A DNA stretch of 64,000 bases from a virus. The notes below the pieces were generated by a model, which had not been told where the DNA came from, did no database searches, and was given only the letters and a program-made list of their open reading frames with translations. The stretch spans positions 96,001 to 160,000 of the IMG/VR virus record IMGVR_UViG_3300020190_000007. One strand, given 5' to 3'. Positions within the stretch are counted from its first letter, which is position 1. The number at the start of each line of letters is the position of its first letter. Shown here piece after piece: positions 21,425 to 42,929 of the stretch. The translations under genes and the position numbers were made by a program.

Positions 21425-21521
21425 TTAATAATATCATACTTATGTACTTTATGGTGTATTTAAAATATACAAAATAAACTTAATAAATCAAAACTTTTTA
21501 TTTATATTTCAAAAAAAGATT

Positions 21522-33151: not shown

Positions 33152-33189
33152 ATATTCATACTTTTTAAAAAAACATATATATTTATATT

Positions 33190-33290
33190 CACACAGGATA
33201 TCTTTGCCGATTTCCTTTCGTTTTATAGTCTGTGGTGTTGAAACCACAAAATGACCACAAACCCCCGACTCTCTGTTGGGGGTTTTTATT
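33190..33290 (+). ncRNA. Candidate small RNA A
   Basis: ORF-free unit between TATTTATA (33180-33187) and a terminator; complementary to candidate RNA B. Confidence 0.55.
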
Positions 33291-33295
33291 TTTTT
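33259..33295 (+). terminator. Intrinsic terminator
   Basis: AAACCCCCGAC-TCTCT-GTTGGGGGTTT followed by a T-run. Confidence 0.85.
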
Positions 33296-33342: not shown

Positions 33343-33756
33343 ATGGAATATACAAAAGATTTGATATTAGTTAGGGGTTTACCCGGCTCGGGTAAATCCA
33401 CTTTAGGTGAGGTCATTCTTTATACCCCAAATAATCCAATGAAACCATTGTCGGCGGATGATTTCTTTACAGACAAGGAAGGTAACTACAATTTTGACCC
33501 AATAAAATTAAGGGAAGCTCATAACGACTGCCAACAAAGGTGTGCAAATTTGATGATGAATAGCGTCGTAAGAGTTGTTGTGTCAAATACGTTTACCCAA
33601 GAATGGGAAATGGAACCATATTTTGAAATGGCGAAAAGATACGGATATCGAATTCACACTATTGTTGTTGAAAACAGACACGGTGGTGAAAATGTCCACG
33701 GAGTACCCTCTGACAAATTAGAGATTATGAAAAATCGTTTTGAAGTAAAACTGTGA
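33343..33756 (+). CDS. P-loop kinase (polynucleotide kinase/AAA_33-like)
   Basis: RGLPGSGKST, SADDFF, VSNTF, HGVP. Confidence 0.85.
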   Translation: MEYTKDLILVRGLPGSGKSTLGEVILYTPNNPMKPLSADDFFTDKEGNYNFDPIKLREAHNDCQQRCANLMMNSVVRVVVSNTFTQEWEMEPYFEMAKRYGYRIHTIVVENRHGGENVHGVPSDKLEIMKNRFEVKL

Positions 33757-34091
33757 TAGTTAGGTTACAAAAATACCATGAGGATGGTTTAGATAATGTT
33801 GAGTTGATTTCTTTAGACCACGACTTGGGTGATAGCGCAATGAAAGAATGGTTACACGGTGTAGTTAAAAACTACGAAATCAACTACGACAATATCACCG
33901 AGAAAACAGGTATGGACTGTACCAAATGGTTAGTTAATCAGTGGTTGGATGGAAAACCTGTTGTTGATGTGGTTGTACATTCAGCCAACGCGGTTGGGAG
34001 TGCTAATATGATGGGGTACATCAATAATTATAGACATATCCACAGATTACCCCAAAACTGTGTGAGAGTTCAGTGGGACCATACGGTTTAA
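33753..34091 (+). CDS. Cyclic-phosphate-processing receiver-like protein, N-terminally truncated or chimeric
   Basis: ISLDHDLG, TGMDCTKWL, VHSANAVG; the usual N-terminal LDD motif is absent. Confidence 0.6.
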   Translation: MIVRLQKYHEDGLDNVELISLDHDLGDSAMKEWLHGVVKNYEINYDNITEKTGMDCTKWLVNQWLDGKPVVDVVVHSANAVGSANMMGYINNYRHIHRLPQNCVRVQWDHTV

Positions 34092-35632: not shown

Positions 35633-35718
35633 GCCGCTGTGTTGAAACAGGTAGACAAGAGAGACTTAAAATTTCTTGGACAGTAATGTCCGTGCCGGTT
35701 CGATTCCGGCCAGCGGTA
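35633..35718 (+). tRNA. tRNA-Leu(TAA)
   Basis: GCCGCTG/CAGCGGT acceptor, AGAGA-CTTAAAA-TTTCT, long variable arm, GGTTCGATTCC. Confidence 0.92.
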
Positions 35719-35782
35719 CAAAAATGGAAAACTCCTCAAATCTACAACTACGGTTATCGTAGAAGGAAATTTCCATTTTAAT

Positions 35783-35854
35783 GGGCCCATAGGTAAAGGG
35801 ATATACCCTCTCACTTCTAATGAGATATTCCAAGTTCGAATCTTGGTGGGCCTA
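35783..35854 (+). tRNA. tRNA-Arg(TCT)
   Basis: GGGCCCA/TGGGCCT, TCTCA-CTTCTAA-TGAGA, CCAAG-TTCGAAT-CTTGG. Confidence 0.9.
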
Positions 35855-36091
35855 CGAATTTAAATGATGTCTCTTTCTATGACAATTTGAACATAAAAGA
35901 ACACATTTATTAAGTTCATTTTTGATTGATTCATCAGACTTCAATCTGAGTTTTGACCAATCAACATCTTTTTCAGAAGGATTTAAATGGTGAAAATCAA
36001 AAATGACATATGAACGATTGAACTTTTGTTCGTACAGATTGTGGTAATTGGACATGTCATATGAATCCCTCGGGACATAAAAAGGTGGCAA
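35852..36091 (-). pseudogene. HNH endonuclease remnant
   Basis: FDFHHLNP...KCVLLCSNCHRKRH; N-terminal CxxC half missing. Confidence 0.65.
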
Positions 36092-36181
36092 ATGCTGTTA
36101 TCACACAGATGAAATTCAAAGTAAAAAACTAATATCGCCGATTTAAACGATAATTCATTTTATCGGTTATTTCGACGATAC

Positions 36182-36255
36182 GGTCCCTTAGCTCAGTTGG
36201 TCAGAGCACCCGACTCATAATCGGTAGGTCCACGGTTCAAGCCCGTGAGGGACCA
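36182..36255 (+). tRNA. tRNA with CAT anticodon, probably Ile2 (lysidine)
   Basis: GGTCCCTTAGCTCAG...GACTCATAATCG...GGTTCAAGCC...AGGGACCA, Ile2-type body. Confidence 0.9.
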
Positions 36256-36281
36256 CGAGATATTTATATAATAAAAAAATC

Positions 36282-36734
36282 ATGGGAATTGAATTAAAAA
36301 AGAAAAAACAACTTATCGAAAGATTAAACAAAAGACTCCTATCCGAAGCGGAAATGGAATGTCCTAAAGCAACTCAAGATTTAGAGTTAAATACCAATAA
36401 TAGAGACAAGTCAATAAAAGCGGATTATATAAAATATGGTCCACTTAATATTGACGAACCCGGTGATTATTGGGAAATGGTTGCATCTGATTGGAACACC
36501 ACTGTTGAAGCTGCTAAAAAATCACTATGTGGTAATTGTGTAGCATTTGATATATCACCAAGAATGGATGAGTGTATGCCAGGTTCGGTTTCTGATGATA
36601 GTGGTAGATTAGGGTACTGTTGGATGCATCACTTTAAATGTCACTCCGCAAGAACATGTAAAACATGGGCAAAAGGTGGTCCAATTACCGAAGATACGGT
36701 GTCCTATGAGTGGCAACAAAAAAATCAAAAATAA
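36282..36734 (+). CDS. Cys-rich hypothetical protein
   Basis: CGNC, GYCWMHHFKC, RTCKTW; late motif upstream. Confidence 0.7.
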   Translation: MGIELKKKKQLIERLNKRLLSEAEMECPKATQDLELNTNNRDKSIKADYIKYGPLNIDEPGDYWEMVASDWNTTVEAAKKSLCGNCVAFDISPRMDECMPGSVSDDSGRLGYCWMHHFKCHSARTCKTWAKGGPITEDTVSYEWQQKNQK

Positions 36735-36803
36735 TATCAACATGTGGTCGTACCCTTAACTCCAAAACCTATTAAGGAAATCGTTATGGGAAGACCACTC
36801 CAA

Positions 36804-36878
36804 GCGGGAGTAGCTCAGTGGTAGAGCATCGCCTTGCCAAGGCGAGGGCCGTGGGTTCAAATCCCATTTCCCGCTCCA
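36804..36878 (+). tRNA. tRNA-Gly(GCC) with encoded CCA
   Basis: GCGGGAG/TTCCCGC-T-CCA, TCGCC-TTGCCAA-GGCGA. Confidence 0.95.
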
Positions 36879-37682: not shown

Positions 37683-39755
37683 ATGACAACAAGGAATTTA
37701 GTTGCGTTTCAAAAAGGTTTGGTCTGTTCACCAAACGACGGTCAAGATAATAGAATCGCGGTAGCAACCGTTCAATCCCACTTAATGCAATGGGGTTACA
37801 TGTTAGACGAAGATGCTTTCTTCGCGTTGTCCAAATCAGAATTATCGTTTATTCAAAACTTCAATCATGAAGTATTGAATCATTTGAAAAATGTAATGGG
37901 TGGTAATCGTAATTACCAACCCCTATATAAGAATTTCCCACAAGAAGTGATGGTTATGTCCGACTTCGAATTATACATGAACGCAATCTTGCATTATTGG
38001 AGTAATGGTCAATGGGAACCATCAACCCACACTTACGAAAAAGAAATCAAGTTTGAAAAAATTAAATACAACTTGATTAAGTATGGTACCTCTGATAGAT
38101 TCTCAAAAATTTTCACTGACTTAGTGTCAATCAACACATCATTAACCCCCCAAGACCTTGAGATTGTTAAGTGGTTTGTATCAAGTGGTGAAACATTGAT
38201 TTTCCCTGACACAATTCCTTTCAAAGAGAATTTGTGTACACTTGCGGGAATGGGAATCGAGGGACTTCCAGTAAAGACTTCAACCGACGTGTTAAGAATA
38301 GCCGTTCATCTTTCAGGTGGAGACATTAGTTTACCTAAAGTTCCTGAAAAGGAAATTAGACTAAACAGATGGTCTACCGATAAAGGAGTAAATCCCGAAA
38401 GAGAAAAGTTTAAATTCAAGAAATTCACTCGTAAAGAGAGGAAGTACATCTTGAATTTACTTGAGAACACAAACTGTGACCCAAGAGAAATGGTTTTAAG
38501 AGACCAACGATGGGTTCGTTTAGGTGAAATCTTACACCCGGGTGAGTATAAAAACCAATTCCCTAAATCTTTTGATGCGTTCAACAAGATTAGAAACGAG
38601 AAAGTAAAATCTTGGTTCTCCCTTGTAGATGAGGGATTCAAAAAAAGTTTGGAGAATGGTTTGAGAGTATTGTCTCAAAGACCCGGTGAATTCTCTCGTC
38701 GATTAGATTGGTTGGTTCGTACATATCCACAAGATATTGAAACAATTATGAAATTATTCGGAGAAGCGGTAAAAGGTACATCAAACAAAGTATTGTTTGA
38801 GGTTTACACTCACTTTGAAGGTCGTACTGAACCTAAAACAAATAGGTCAGTTATGATTAAAGGAGCGAGAAAACGTACCGAATTACCATCACTACAAGCA
38901 ATCCCTAAAGAGATTGTGGAAACCATCCACTCTAAATTATTCGAAACTCTTAGAGATAAGTTTTCGGTAATGGATTCTTTAGGTAACTGTTGGATTGATG
39001 AGGAATTAAAAAAGATTCCTTTACCAACCAACATGAGAAGTATGAACTTCTCAACTAAACCTACCATCAGAGGTCAACGAGTTCCGCTCGATAACCCCGA
39101 TGCAAAAGTTATCAGACCATTTATTCATTGGATGGATAAACGTGGTTCTGAAGACTTGGATTTAAGTGTTACGTTTGTTGGTGAAAAAGTGTCAGAAGTA
39201 CTATCTTTCAGTAACTTGAGAGTTGGTAACTCTGTTCACTCGGGGGACGTGAGACATAGACAGGGTCCTTGTGCGGAGTACATCGACATCGATATTCAAG
39301 ATGGATTAAATCGTGGATTCAAGTACGCGGTTATTGACGTAAGAAACTTCAATGGCGGTAGTTTAAGTTCACTTGAAACATCCTTTGGTATCATGGAGAG
39401 AGAACATCCTGAATCAAACACGACATGGTTACCTGAGACAATTTCAAATTGTCAATCATTAGAATCTGAGTCGTCAAACACTTTGATTGCAATTATTGAC
39501 TTAGAAACCAAAGAGTACATCATGTTGGACATTGATTCAAGTGGTTTTGTAACCGCGAGGAGCGACTTCAATAACACCTTTAAAGTAATTCAACAATACG
39601 CTGAATTACCAAAAGTAAGTGTTTATGACCTTATTCTTCTACACGTAGAAGGTCGAGGAAAACAAGTTACCCTTGACGAGAATGTGGATACACATTTCAA
39701 GTACGAGGACTTCTGTTACTCTTATGAAGAGACAGGTAAATTGATGGGTGTCTAA
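37683..39755 (+). CDS. Helical TROVE/Ro-like protein with C-terminal TerD-like domain
   Basis: PLYKNFP, TSTDVLR, LHPGEY, RPGEFSRRLD, C-terminal DLDLS...HSGD...AEYIDID; recalls the Prok-RING_4 family architecture without the RING finger. Confidence 0.65.
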   Translation: MTTRNLVAFQKGLVCSPNDGQDNRIAVATVQSHLMQWGYMLDEDAFFALSKSELSFIQNFNHEVLNHLKNVMGGNRNYQPLYKNFPQEVMVMSDFELYMNAILHYWSNGQWEPSTHTYEKEIKFEKIKYNLIKYGTSDRFSKIFTDLVSINTSLTPQDLEIVKWFVSSGETLIFPDTIPFKENLCTLAGMGIEGLPVKTSTDVLRIAVHLSGGDISLPKVPEKEIRLNRWSTDKGVNPEREKFKFKKFTRKERKYILNLLENTNCDPREMVLRDQRWVRLGEILHPGEYKNQFPKSFDAFNKIRNEKVKSWFSLVDEGFKKSLENGLRVLSQRPGEFSRRLDWLVRTYPQDIETIMKLFGEAVKGTSNKVLFEVYTHFEGRTEPKTNRSVMIKGARKRTELPSLQAIPKEIVETIHSKLFETLRDKFSVMDSLGNCWIDEELKKIPLPTNMRSMNFSTKPTIRGQRVPLDNPDAKVIRPFIHWMDKRGSEDLDLSVTFVGEKVSEVLSFSNLRVGNSVHSGDVRHRQGPCAEYIDIDIQDGLNRGFKYAVIDVRNFNGGSLSSLETSFGIMEREHPESNTTWLPETISNCQSLESESSNTLIAIIDLETKEYIMLDIDSSGFVTARSDFNNTFKVIQQYAELPKVSVYDLILLHVEGRGKQVTLDENVDTHFKYEDFCYSYEETGKLMGV

Positions 39756-40806: not shown

Positions 40807-41526
40807 ATGAGAATAGTATGTATTTCTGACACCCACTCTTTACACAATGGTATGTTGTATAACATACCACAGGGAGATATTTTGATACACTCAGGAGATT
40901 GCACAAATGTCGGACGACAAAATGATGTTCGTGATTTTATTAATTGGTTTCAAAATATACAAGGATTTACCCATAAAATTTTCATTGCAGGTAACCACGA
41001 TTTTGCGTTTCAAAGAAAACCAACATGGTTAAATCTTTACATAGACCCATCAATTCTCACAGAAAATAATGTTACTTATTTGGAAGATGGTGAGTTGGAA
41101 ATTATTAGTTCAGAATTCTCAAGACCAATAAAAATTTATGGTTCTCCATGGCAACCTGAATTTTTTGATTGGGCATTTAATTTACCAAGAAACGGTGAGG
41201 TGTTAAAAGAAAAATGGGACTCAATCCCAAATAATACCGATATCTTAATAACACATGGTCCACCACATGGAATTAGAGATTTTACACCCAATAATTTACA
41301 GGTCGGATGTGAACTTTTAAGAGAGCGTGTTGAAGTTTTAAAACCACTTTTACATGTTTTTGGTCACATACATGGTGCATATGGTGTTGCAATGATTGGC
41401 GATACAGTATTTGCTAACGCATCAACTTGTACAGAAAGGTATCGACCAATAAATAAACCATTAGTTTTTGATTTAATCGAAAATGATGGTATATTTACAA
41501 TAAATTATATAGACGAAGAAAATTAA
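40807..41526 (+). CDS. Calcineurin-like metallophosphoesterase
   Basis: ISDTH, HSGD, AGNHD, THGPP, FGHIH. Confidence 0.92.
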   Translation: MRIVCISDTHSLHNGMLYNIPQGDILIHSGDCTNVGRQNDVRDFINWFQNIQGFTHKIFIAGNHDFAFQRKPTWLNLYIDPSILTENNVTYLEDGELEIISSEFSRPIKIYGSPWQPEFFDWAFNLPRNGEVLKEKWDSIPNNTDILITHGPPHGIRDFTPNNLQVGCELLRERVEVLKPLLHVFGHIHGAYGVAMIGDTVFANASTCTERYRPINKPLVFDLIENDGIFTINYIDEEN

Positions 41527-41527
41527 C

Positions 41528-41550
41528 TATCTTTGTCTTGTTCTTTGACT
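41528..41550 (+). promoter_or_regulatory. TAnnTTTG promoter element plus boxA-like element before tmRNA
   Basis: TATCTTTG at 41528; TGTTCTTTGACT at 41539. Confidence 0.6.
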
Positions 41551-41553
41551 TAT

Positions 41554-42129
41554 GGGGGTGTATGGAATTGATTGGCGTTGATATGGTAAATGGGCACGTA
41601 GTCGGATGTCATCTACGACTTTAATCCACGGTGGTAAATTTTAAACGGCAACGTTTATAACCAAATGGAAGTAGCAGGTCTTCTTGCGACTTCTAAAGTT
41701 GCAGCCTAATTGGTTGTAACTAACGGGTCGACGGACAGATAACCTTGGAACAGAAGTCCTTGTAGGGTGTGGTTTCTATCCTAAAAGAAACAAAGTGGAA
41801 GATTAGTTCTCAGTAAACCGAACCACTTTAAAATAAGGGAATTGTGAATTTCGGAGTATTAGAAAATACTGTCCTAAACGTGTAGTCCATTTATTGTATT
41901 GCGAGCAAGACGCGGGTTTTTAATCGAGCCCCTTCATATCGTGAGATATGTCGAAAATCGGATGAACTCAGGGGAAGTCTTTTAGATAATCCTGAGCCAA
42001 GCCTGATAGGAACAGGAAGGTGCAGAGACTAGTGGGTGATAGACGCTTCTATCGTAATACCACATTAGCGTCCGACATCTCGTTGAGATGATGATATAGT
42101 CCAATAATTGTCGAAACCCGCCACCTCCA
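41554..42129 (+). ncRNA. ssrA: tmRNA, intron-containing
   Basis: GGGGGTG/CACCTCC-A acceptor with G3-U70; tag ORF 41647-41709 GNVYNQMEVAGLLATSKVAA*; T-arm GCGGG-TTCGAAA-CCCGC after splicing. Confidence 0.93.
41918..42110 (+). mobile_element. Group I intron (193 nt, IC3-like) in the tmRNA T-loop
   Basis: AATCCTGAGCCAA, GTGCAGAGACT and GATATAGTCC core elements; 5' exon ends in U, intron ends in G; internal guide TCGA-GCCC pairs with both exons. Confidence 0.9.
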
Positions 42130-42133
42130 CATT

Positions 42134-42168
42134 AAAGGGAACCTCAAAAGGGTTCCCTTTTATTTTTA
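42134..42168. terminator. Terminator between tmRNA and the convergent HNH gene
   Basis: AAAGGGAACC-TCAAAAG-GGTTCCCTTT plus T-run. Confidence 0.8.
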
Positions 42169-42665
42169 ATTAAAATACTAATTAATTCATGAATATACGC
42201 ATCATCCATTTCATTTTTCATCCAATTAATTGCCCTTGAAACCCATCTAACATTTCCTTTAACATAACCTAATTTATTATCTATCCTATCTAAAGACGCA
42301 GAATATATTGGATTCTTTTTTATTTTGGTATATGATGACAACTCTAATTTTATACCACTGAATGGACAAATTCCATTTTGTAAAACCCATTGATTAGACA
42401 AATCTTCAATAGTTAAATCAATAATTTGATTTCTTTTTTTAATATTTCTAAAATGATATTTGAATTTTGAATATTCCCCACCTCTATTATTTGAGTGTCT
42501 TTGTATATCGTATCGATTTTTAACGTTTAATAAATTTTTAGTATTGTTAATACCAACACAATTTCTTGAACAAAAATTAGGTCTATTTAATTTTTTATTA
42601 CGATTTAATTCAGAATTTGATTTTTCAAATTCAATCCCACAGCTTGAACAAATACATTTTCCCAT
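42144..42665 (-). CDS. Free-standing HNH-type endonuclease with N-terminal zinc finger
   Basis: CSSC, FCSRNC, CPFSG, SLDRIDNKLGYVKGNVRWV...N.MK. Confidence 0.8.
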   Translation of the reverse strand: MGKCICSSCGIEFEKSNSELNRNKKLNRPNFCSRNCVGINNTKNLLNVKNRYDIQRHSNNRGGEYSKFKYHFRNIKKRNQIIDLTIEDLSNQWVLQNGICPFSGIKLELSSYTKIKKNPIYSASLDRIDNKLGYVKGNVRWVSRAINWMKNEMDDAYIHELISILIKNKREPF

Positions 42666-42730: not shown

Positions 42731-42900
42731 AAACCCACCAATTGGTGGGTTTTTTGTTTTAAGGACACTTTGTCCTCGATATTGTCTTTGAGAGGTATAT
42801 AACGAACAAAGAGGTCAATTCAGACCCCTTTGCCGAGATGTGGAATACCTCCTTTCGTTTTTAGTCTAATTATCATCTCATGGCGACCAAACCATTTGAT
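42731..42900 (-). ncRNA. Candidate small RNA B displaying an extended SD sequence
   Basis: TATTTATA on the minus strand at 42914-42907, terminator hairpin 42731-42752, stem GAGAUG/CAUCUC around a loop containing GAAAGGAGGUAUUCCA, then a 12-bp hairpin. Confidence 0.6.
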
Positions 42901-42929
42901 TCTAATTATAAATATCTTGTAATCTTAAT

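Follow-up and report, generated by a model that had tools for sequence, protein, structure and literature searches.

AgvB, which is encoded by a prophage of enterohaemorrhagic E. coli, and SroC both act on GcvB and are anti-sRNA sponges. The c4 antisense RNA of phages P1 and P7 acts on the icd-ant mRNA, and tisB/istR-1 and zorO/orzO are trans-acting type I toxin-antitoxin pairs. Ribosomes of Bacteroidia normally ignore Shine-Dalgarno (SD) sequences (PMC9976891); in Flavobacteriales, rpsU is about the only gene with a strong SD, and the ribosomes that translate it are devoid of bS21 (PMC9976891). The 13-bp helix formed by the rpsU SD and the anti-SD displaces bS21 from the 30S subunit (PMC13000457), and this extended SD serves in the autoregulation of bS21, both in Flavobacteriales and elsewhere among the Bacteroidia (PMC7797042, PMC9976891, PMC13000457). 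Lake phages that infect Bacteroidetes and encode bS21 were described by Chen et al. 2022 (PMC9723584), in the text of which small RNAs are absent, and the existence of unknown phage products helping bS21 exchange is an explicit speculation in PMC9976891. The open question addressed here is how bS21-encoding phages take over the ribosomes of Bacteroidia.

The window, i.e. the whole stretch of 64,000 nucleotides that was analysed, corresponds to bases 96001-160000 of a 170.9-kb virus record (32.7% G+C). Its relatives are found in IMG/VR as large contigs from fresh water, the longest of which reaches 334 kb, and the genome type matches the lake phages, bS21-encoding and Bacteroidetes-infecting, that Chen et al. 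2022 described (PMC9723584). Two short loci of the window, RNA A and RNA B (Table 1), probably represent independently transcribed, non-coding phage sRNAs that form a duplex kept by selection, B serving as a decoy or as a device dislodging bS21 and A neutralising B. Within this reading, expression, ribosome binding and which of the two RNAs is the effector are points that we infer.

The RNA A and RNA B loci and their genomic setting

Homologues of A, collected by pattern scans and with covariance model R1, comprise 22 distinct sequences, and R1 matches the window at 33187-33295 with 123 bits. In the relatives, the A locus is always located between a ClpB-like ATPase gene, whose stop codon is overlapped by the promoter region of A, and an AAA_33 kinase-like gene. 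A block upstream of A, TAAATA..TTGAC..N19..TATATATATTTAT, is conserved in 14 diverged relatives, its elements TAAATA, TTGAC and TATATATATTTAT being common to all the A sequences, and conservation is much higher in the spacer that contains A than in the coding sequence on either side. In the A model alignment, 98.8% of the structure cells are paired and 10 of the 19 pairs display compensatory changes; sliding the partners lowers the paired support to 32-57%. The first ca. 45 nt of A are conserved in sequence and predicted to be unpaired within A except for a short 5' stem. This stem, P0, does not belong to the structure of model R1; its apical part holds seed 1, CUUUGCCGA (33202-10), and its columns 12/29 are A-U in 9 sequences and U-A in 12. 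One pair of the A terminator occurs as G-U (13 sequences) or A-U (8), so that the terminator works on the plus strand only, and A was assigned to that strand because of this pair and of the U tail.

Model R1 also gave weak second matches of ca. 82 nt in three relatives (L258-L260; E 7e-5 to 5e-4), at G026:C1:33189-33270, G018:C1:73219-73300 and G024:C1:46853-46934. In each case the true A lies ca. 3 kb away on the other strand, and the second match may correspond to a further related small RNA or simply to a similar terminator. Directly 3' of A, positions 33343-34091 carry the AAA_33 kinase-like gene together with a gene for a cREC_REC (cyclic-phosphate processing receiver) domain, a combination that suggests RNA repair, and four tRNA genes are found beyond these, at 35633-36878.

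For B, 39 distinct homologues were obtained, all of which have GATATTTAT at a fixed distance upstream, and covariance model R2 matches the window at 42906-42799 with 106.5 bits. From 5' to 3', the homologues consist of hairpin P1, GAUAA, a variable linker, AAACGAAA(A)GGAGGU, a small GAGGU/AUCUC helix and a G-U-rich 12-bp terminator stem. The P1 stem covaries, one of its pairs being U-A in 26 sequences and C-G in 9, among others. In the window, the terminator hairpin occupies 42834-42805 and is followed, as in the homologues, by UUUGUUCGUU; its G-U pairs and the G-U to A-U switches seen at 6 positions imply that it pairs only as minus-strand RNA. Since the similarity of the B region to relative G005 ends at ca. 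42789, just past this hairpin, B most likely ends near 42797. Two structural proposals of the earlier note had to be given up. The hairpin at 42731-42752, taken there for the terminator of B, is missing in G005, the conserved terminator being that at 42834-42805, and the stem GAGAUG/CAUCUC, thought to close a loop presenting the SD, is broken in the close relative L178; the sole conserved local pairing predicted at the SD of B is the GAGGU/AUCUC helix, which is invariant.

No AUG, GUG or UUG occurs in B at SD spacing. An invariant AUC is found 6-8 nt downstream of the SD, and the frame that starts from it comprises 26, 12 or 6 codons in relatives and crosses the terminator stem, the loop length of which shifts that frame. 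In at least 8 relatives, B is located directly downstream of a 320-aa gene. On its other side the window carries a group I intron at 41908-42120 (+; Rfam, 68.8 bits), adjoined by a Cys-rich 173-aa ORF at 42144-42665 (-) without Pfam match. This ORF is 81-85% identical in L179 and L232, whereas G005 lacks it downstream of B; it has the look of a mobile insertion of the homing-endonuclease-like kind, and such an insertion would explain why the similarity ends right after the terminator of B.

When whole records were searched with the A model, A was found in 16 of the 18 long B-bearing contigs (E <= 6e-11), the two contigs without A being 39% and 54% complete. Both RNAs are present in 25 records (21 distinct), counting nine pattern-found pairs, which bears out that A and B co-occur in relatives. 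The two genes are convergent and 9.6-27 kb apart, and their synteny is kept despite the divergence of the flanking proteins, which share only 37-73% identity (taken singly, 60-85% for the ClpB-like protein and 31-80% for the 320-aa protein). The earlier note had placed A on the plus and B on the minus strand; the terminators, U tails, promoter motifs and strand-specific G-U pairs all agree with this arrangement. Promoter motifs at fixed distance, covarying terminators, U tails and opposite strands are the sequence marks of two independent transcription units, and at this level A and B are conserved, syntenic, ORF-less units, each with a promoter motif, covarying hairpins and an intrinsic terminator.

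The phage bS21 gene is the functional context of the A/B pair. It is encoded in 24 of 30 related records, including all 4 records that are at least 90% complete, and lies ca. 12 kb from A in related records. In the window, no SD was detected for this gene, and TATTTATATT, the same motif as for A and B, occurs at 21499 upstream of its start. Because A, B and bS21 all carry one type of promoter motif (TATTTATA-type), different timing, of the kind implied by the timer for ribosome capture proposed in the earlier note, is not evident and a simple temporal switch is disfavoured. A 5-mer SD was found for 0 of the 157 ORFs of at least 100 aa of the window genome, and no strong intergenic SD other than that of B occurs elsewhere in this genome.

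Neither A nor B reaches any gathering threshold of Rfam release 15, E-value thresholds also yielded no family, and their best sub-threshold matches (27.4 bits for A, threshold 55; 25.3 bits for B, threshold 37) are driven by the terminators. DNA searches of a phage GenBank collection with both loci gave no match, the relatives all coming from IMG/VR, and no description of these RNAs was found in full-text literature searches. In riverine metatranscriptomes (n=24), 7-12% of the 9.9-kb stretch was covered, with contigs mainly on a 690-aa gene and on the intron-bearing region; neither A nor B is resolved by them. These contigs pile up at 38400-39720 (690-aa gene) and 41375-42036, with summed depths in the hundreds, and many of them are likely to derive from relatives since they differ by 5-10%.

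Table 1. Position of the features of RNA A, RNA B and the phage bS21 gene in the window
Feature	Position	Strand	Remarks
Phage bS21 gene, 66 aa	21522..21722	+	PF01165, 43.7 bits
RNA A promoter region	33155..33189	+	-10-like TATTTATATT at 33180-89; weak -35-like TTCATA at 33155-60
RNA A, ca. 100 nt	33193..33292	+	ends estimated from promoter spacing and terminator
A 5' stem-loop P0	33196..33216	+	MFE fold; AGGA (33196-99) pairs with UCCU (33213-16)
A seed 2, UUUCCUUUCGUUUUAUAGUCUG	33211..33232	+	pairs with B 42868-42847: linker, ACGAAAGG, GGAGG
A internal hairpin GUGGU-GUUGAA-ACCAC	33232..33247	+	invariant loop; 4/5 pairs with compensatory changes
A intrinsic terminator and U run	33259..33295	+	hairpin 33259-33285, T run after; 5/10 pairs compensatory
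RNA B promoter motif TATTTATAAT	42905..42914	-	at 42914-42905
RNA B, ca. 100-105 nt	42797..42900	-	ends estimated
B hairpin P1	42875..42898	-	invariant loop GGUUUGGUCRCC; covarying stem
B extended SD-like element ACGAAAGGAGGUAUUCC	42842..42858	-	complementary to Bacteroidia 16S tail GGAACACCUCCUUUC
Target of A seed 1, UCGGCAAAG	42828..42836	-	also 5' arm of B's own terminator stem
B terminator-like hairpin GGCAAAGGGGUC / GACCUCUUUGUU	42797..42834	-	followed by CGUUAU; conserved

Predicted pairing between A and B

Two blocks had been described as shared between the A and B loci, and both occur exactly as claimed and on the same DNA strand: block 1, CTTTGCCGA, at 33202-33210 and 42828-42836, and block 2, TCCTTTCGTTTT(A)TAGTCT, at 33213-31 and 42850-67. 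A 9-mer and a 12-mer within 30 nt of each other are expected to recur by chance ca. 7 times per AT-rich 64-kb window, and this part means nothing alone. The full composite, defined as a 9-mer, a gap of up to 30 nt, a 12-mer, an indel of up to 1 nt and a 6-mer, was found in 4 of 300 order-2 Markov windows, that is 0.013 expected per window; in one genome, such a repeat is suggestive, being moderately unlikely by chance, and is not decisive. The sole other locus pair of the window that passes the composite-repeat filter belongs to a tandem repeat with a period of ca. 141 nt located at 200-600 (e.g. TCAGATGGCGAT at 320, 461 and 602). At the level of sequence, it is the comparative data described below that settle the question beyond the single-genome repeat.

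The two-helix duplex predicted earlier, with two G-U pairs extending over GGAGG, was reproduced, with -43.6 kcal/mol for the A:B duplex of the window versus -19.9 ± 3.4 for shuffled B (RNAduplex ignores accessibility). In a scan of the whole 171-kb genome, the best non-self target of A is B. In the reverse direction A is only narrowly the best partner of B (-37.9 versus -37.5 for the runner-up, a GC-rich stretch antisense to a coding gene). The same duplex architecture is predicted by RNAduplex in every genome. Helix 1 joins the loop segment CUUUGYCGA of A to UCGRCAAAG of B, and helix 2 joins CCU(n)CGUUU.. of A and the segment that follows to the linker and ACGA(n)GG of B; in the window, seed 2 of A also reaches GGAGG through two U-G pairs. 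The 10-16 nt of B around GGAGGU..AUC are looped out or are partly covered via U-G pairs.

Compensatory changes between the two RNAs, which the earlier note had listed as a check in related phages, were found in the seed states, the run lengths, the linkers and a comparison of cognate with permuted pairs. One position of seed 1 is variable: A and B carry C/G there in 12 pairs, U/A in 8, U/G in 5 and C/A in 0, and the pair type has changed at least 6 times on a tree of the flanking protein. Because the variable seed-1 positions of B are also constrained by B's own terminator stem, only the C/U changes of A discriminate at this seed. Run lengths match as well, CCU(3 or 4)CG of A occurring with CGA(3 or 4)GG of B (UUU/AAA or UUUU/AAAA), and one 3/3 pair (L246/L169) is nested among 4/4 relatives; in L252/L158, an A to G change of B is taken up by a wobble pair. 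Within each genome, the variable linker of B finds its complement in the corresponding variable part of A, for instance AAAAUU/AAUUUU, AUAAGUA/UACUUAU, UUUUAUCA/UGAUAAAA and UUCAU/AUGAA.

Overall, permuting the partners costs stability (cognate -37.5 versus permuted -31.8 ± 0.95 kcal/mol, p<5e-5), both in clade I (p=0.004) and in clade II (p<5e-5). For helix 2 and the linker alone, with segments cut at alignment columns, p is 2e-5 overall and 6e-5 in clade II, and clade I is not significant (0.08). An exception to the matching is seen in most clade-I A sequences (L001-L012, L090 etc.), in which CCUCUCG faces CGAAAGG of B and leaves an uncompensated C-A mismatch in helix 2; the A of the window reads CCUUUCG, with a U matching its B. 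A kissing contact between UGGUCR of B and UGACCA of A is possible; it would comprise 6 bp in clade I and only 4 in clade II, and shows no covariation. The A:B pairing does not account for the invariant loops of the two RNAs, GGUUUGGUCRCC in B and GUUGAA in A, which may be contact sites for a protein or the ribosome.

These data make it very probable that the A:B pairing is real and selected. They uphold the proposal of a trans-encoded RNA pair on opposite strands, the compensatory pairing being kept in at least 21 distinct phage genomes.

The 16S rRNA tail, rpsU and alternative readings

The 3' tail of 16S rRNA was read in 15 Bacteroidia genomes, 12 of which have CTGGAACACCTCCTTTCT with the gene end GGAACACCUCCUUUCU. 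The pattern match L289, in a Bacteroidota MAG, was rejected as a 16S end, being a gene start. The genomes searched included an unpublished one, G131, on which none of the claims depends. The B of the window is complementary to this tail over 10 contiguous nt and, after one mismatch, over 4 more; clade-II B matches 13-14 contiguous nt that include GUGUUC beyond the purine tract. The predicted tail:B duplex amounts to -23.3 kcal/mol for the window B and -22.6 for clade-II B, at or beyond the range of -8.8 to -22.8 obtained for the tail pairing of real rpsU sites. A strong SD was found in 12 of 29 sampled Bacteroidia rpsU genes, and searching with the phage bS21 protein gave three Bacteroidota rpsU loci, two of them SD-less; several of the sampled leaders read ACGA(A/G)AGGAGGU(A/G)UU, nearly identical to B, which has ACGAAAGGAGGU, or AAAAACGA.AGGAGGUAUU, in common with sampled rpsU leaders. 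B thus has the complementarity of an rpsU-type extended SD, although it has no start codon and no bS21 ORF, and is regarded as a mimic of such a site rather than a member because a start codon and a conserved frame are lacking. The suggestion that A is a partial anti-SD mimic was also supported, its CCUUUC core resembling the 16S tail and its C to U changes still forming wobble pairs with B.

In the proposed mechanism, A and B would be transcribed independently and would form a long, interrupted intermolecular duplex kept by selection. B, a start-less copy of the extended SD that Bacteroidia use only for rpsU, would most likely bind the normally hidden 3' tail of the host 16S rRNA and act as a decoy or as a device dislodging host bS21. 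The single-stranded 5' half of A, a partial mimic of the 16S tail, would pair with the same nucleotides of B as the tail does, and its pairing would extend to the linker of B and to the 5' arm of the terminator stem, thereby neutralising or releasing B. With perfect Watson-Crick pairing, A competes with the 3' arm of B itself (CUUUGUU), and the A:B duplex (-33 to -44 kcal/mol) should outcompete both tail:B (ca. -23) and the internal fold of B because its pairing is stronger and overlapping. That the function consists of a decoy and an anti-decoy on the ribosome is put forward tentatively, with a little less than even confidence.

A bolder version, which we consider quite unlikely, has the pair work as an RNA machine that exchanges a ribosomal protein and reprograms the ribosome without proteolysis. 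B would anneal to the sequestered 16S tail and force host bS21 off the 30S subunit, as the rpsU mRNA does, and A, binding B more strongly than the tail, would strip it off so that the tail could re-dock with phage bS21.

Among the alternatives to the decoy and anti-decoy reading, the one that survives best, unlikely as it is, reverses the roles: A would be the effector, an anti-SD-like antisense RNA masking the SD of host rpsU, and B would be a look-alike of the rpsU leader that sponges or buffers A. Resynthesis of host bS21 would then be blocked during supply of the phage's own, and the SD-less phage bS21 gene would escape masking. The A variant CCUCUCG exactly complements CGAGAGG of several rpsU leaders (L290, L310, L316), and the predicted duplexes of A variants average -14.5 to -16.6 kcal/mol when the rpsU leader bears an SD, the best value being -29.1, and -5.9 to -7.2 when it does not, the leaders compared being those of sampled Bacteroidia, which may not be those of the host. 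Against these roles, rpsU could engage only ca. 12 nt of A, while selection keeps ca. 35-45 nt complementary to B, including the genome-specific linkers, and seed 1 has no evident counterpart in rpsU.

It is decidedly improbable that the A:B duplex is itself the functional unit, independent of the ribosome, as a two-piece RNA or RNP scaffold or as an RNase III-type substrate, with the SD-like run being no more than a purine tract. Such a role would give a place to the invariant hairpin loop that each RNA has outside the pairing model, and would suit a region rich in RNA-handling genes (AAA_33 kinase-like, cREC_REC, tRNAs, group I intron); however, a purine tract leaves unexplained the unbroken clade-II complement to the 16S tail, with its GUGUUC, as well as the tight association with phage bS21 and the absence of SD motifs from the rest of the genome.

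The earlier analogy with an RNA toxin-antitoxin system is not supported. In a type I-like version, B would be the mRNA of a small toxic peptide with a non-AUG start and A the antisense antitoxin lying over its ribosome-binding site. The strong SD, the invariant AUC 6-8 nt downstream and the coverage of the SD by A are of the kind expected, but the lack of AUG, GUG and UUG at the right spacing, a frame from AUC that varies from 6 to 26 codons between relatives (26, 12 or 6) and runs through the terminator stem, and ribosomes that normally ignore SDs in Bacteroidia (PMC9976891) leave this reading, on sequence grounds, close to refuted and extremely improbable. Finally, it is barely credible that no RNA pairing is involved and that the repeat arose by chance, reflects paralogues on one strand or marks a DNA-binding site common to both loci: the single-genome repeat alone has p of ca. 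0.013 per window and another site of the genome pairs by chance almost as well with the core of B, but the terminators, U tails and G-U pairs of A and B run in opposite directions, all A/B discordances at the seed position are wobble-compatible, and the gain in stability is specific to cognate partners as compared with permuted ones.

Comparison with known systems

Under the favoured reading of B as a decoy or bS21 dislodger and A as its antagonist, A and B are two small, conserved RNAs that are easy to synthesise and show genetic linkage to phage bS21; B would be a start-less mimic of the host's only strong SD and A its co-evolved antagonist. With the Flavobacterium johnsoniae reporters already at hand, toeprinting and cryo-EM, they open the question of bS21 takeover to direct testing.

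Of the trans-acting toxin-antitoxin pairs, tisB/istR-1 and zorO/orzO resemble A/B in being separate small RNAs that are complementary over at least ca. 20 nt around the region bound by the ribosome, and differ in that B has no conserved toxin ORF. Like A, c4 is a small phage RNA in which two short segments pair with two segments of the target over a ribosome-binding site; it is, however, processed from the operon transcript of its own target and represses a real ORF, whereas the gene for A lies 9.6-27 kb from the separate gene for B, which is ORF-less. The extended SD of rpsU resembles B in pairing 10-14 contiguous bases with the 16S tail, through ACGA(A/G)AGGAGGU(A/G)UU and with similar predicted energy. 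Unlike the rpsU leader, B has neither start codon nor bS21 ORF, is a terminated, phage-encoded RNA of ca. 100 nt, and comes with an additional conserved hairpin and an antisense partner of its own.

AgvB/GcvB and SroC/GcvB share with A/B a trans-acting sRNA that pairs with, and presumably neutralises, another sRNA by mimicking its natural target, and AgvB/GcvB shares the phage origin as well. In contrast to these sponges, both partners of A/B are phage-encoded and co-inherited, their predicted duplex is far longer (ca. 30-40 bp in two helices), B appears to target rRNA and not mRNAs, and no Hfq-type system is implied. The pair would represent a rare case of one virus carrying an sRNA together with a dedicated anti-sRNA, and B possibly the first small RNA aimed at the anti-SD tail of 16S rRNA as a decoy.
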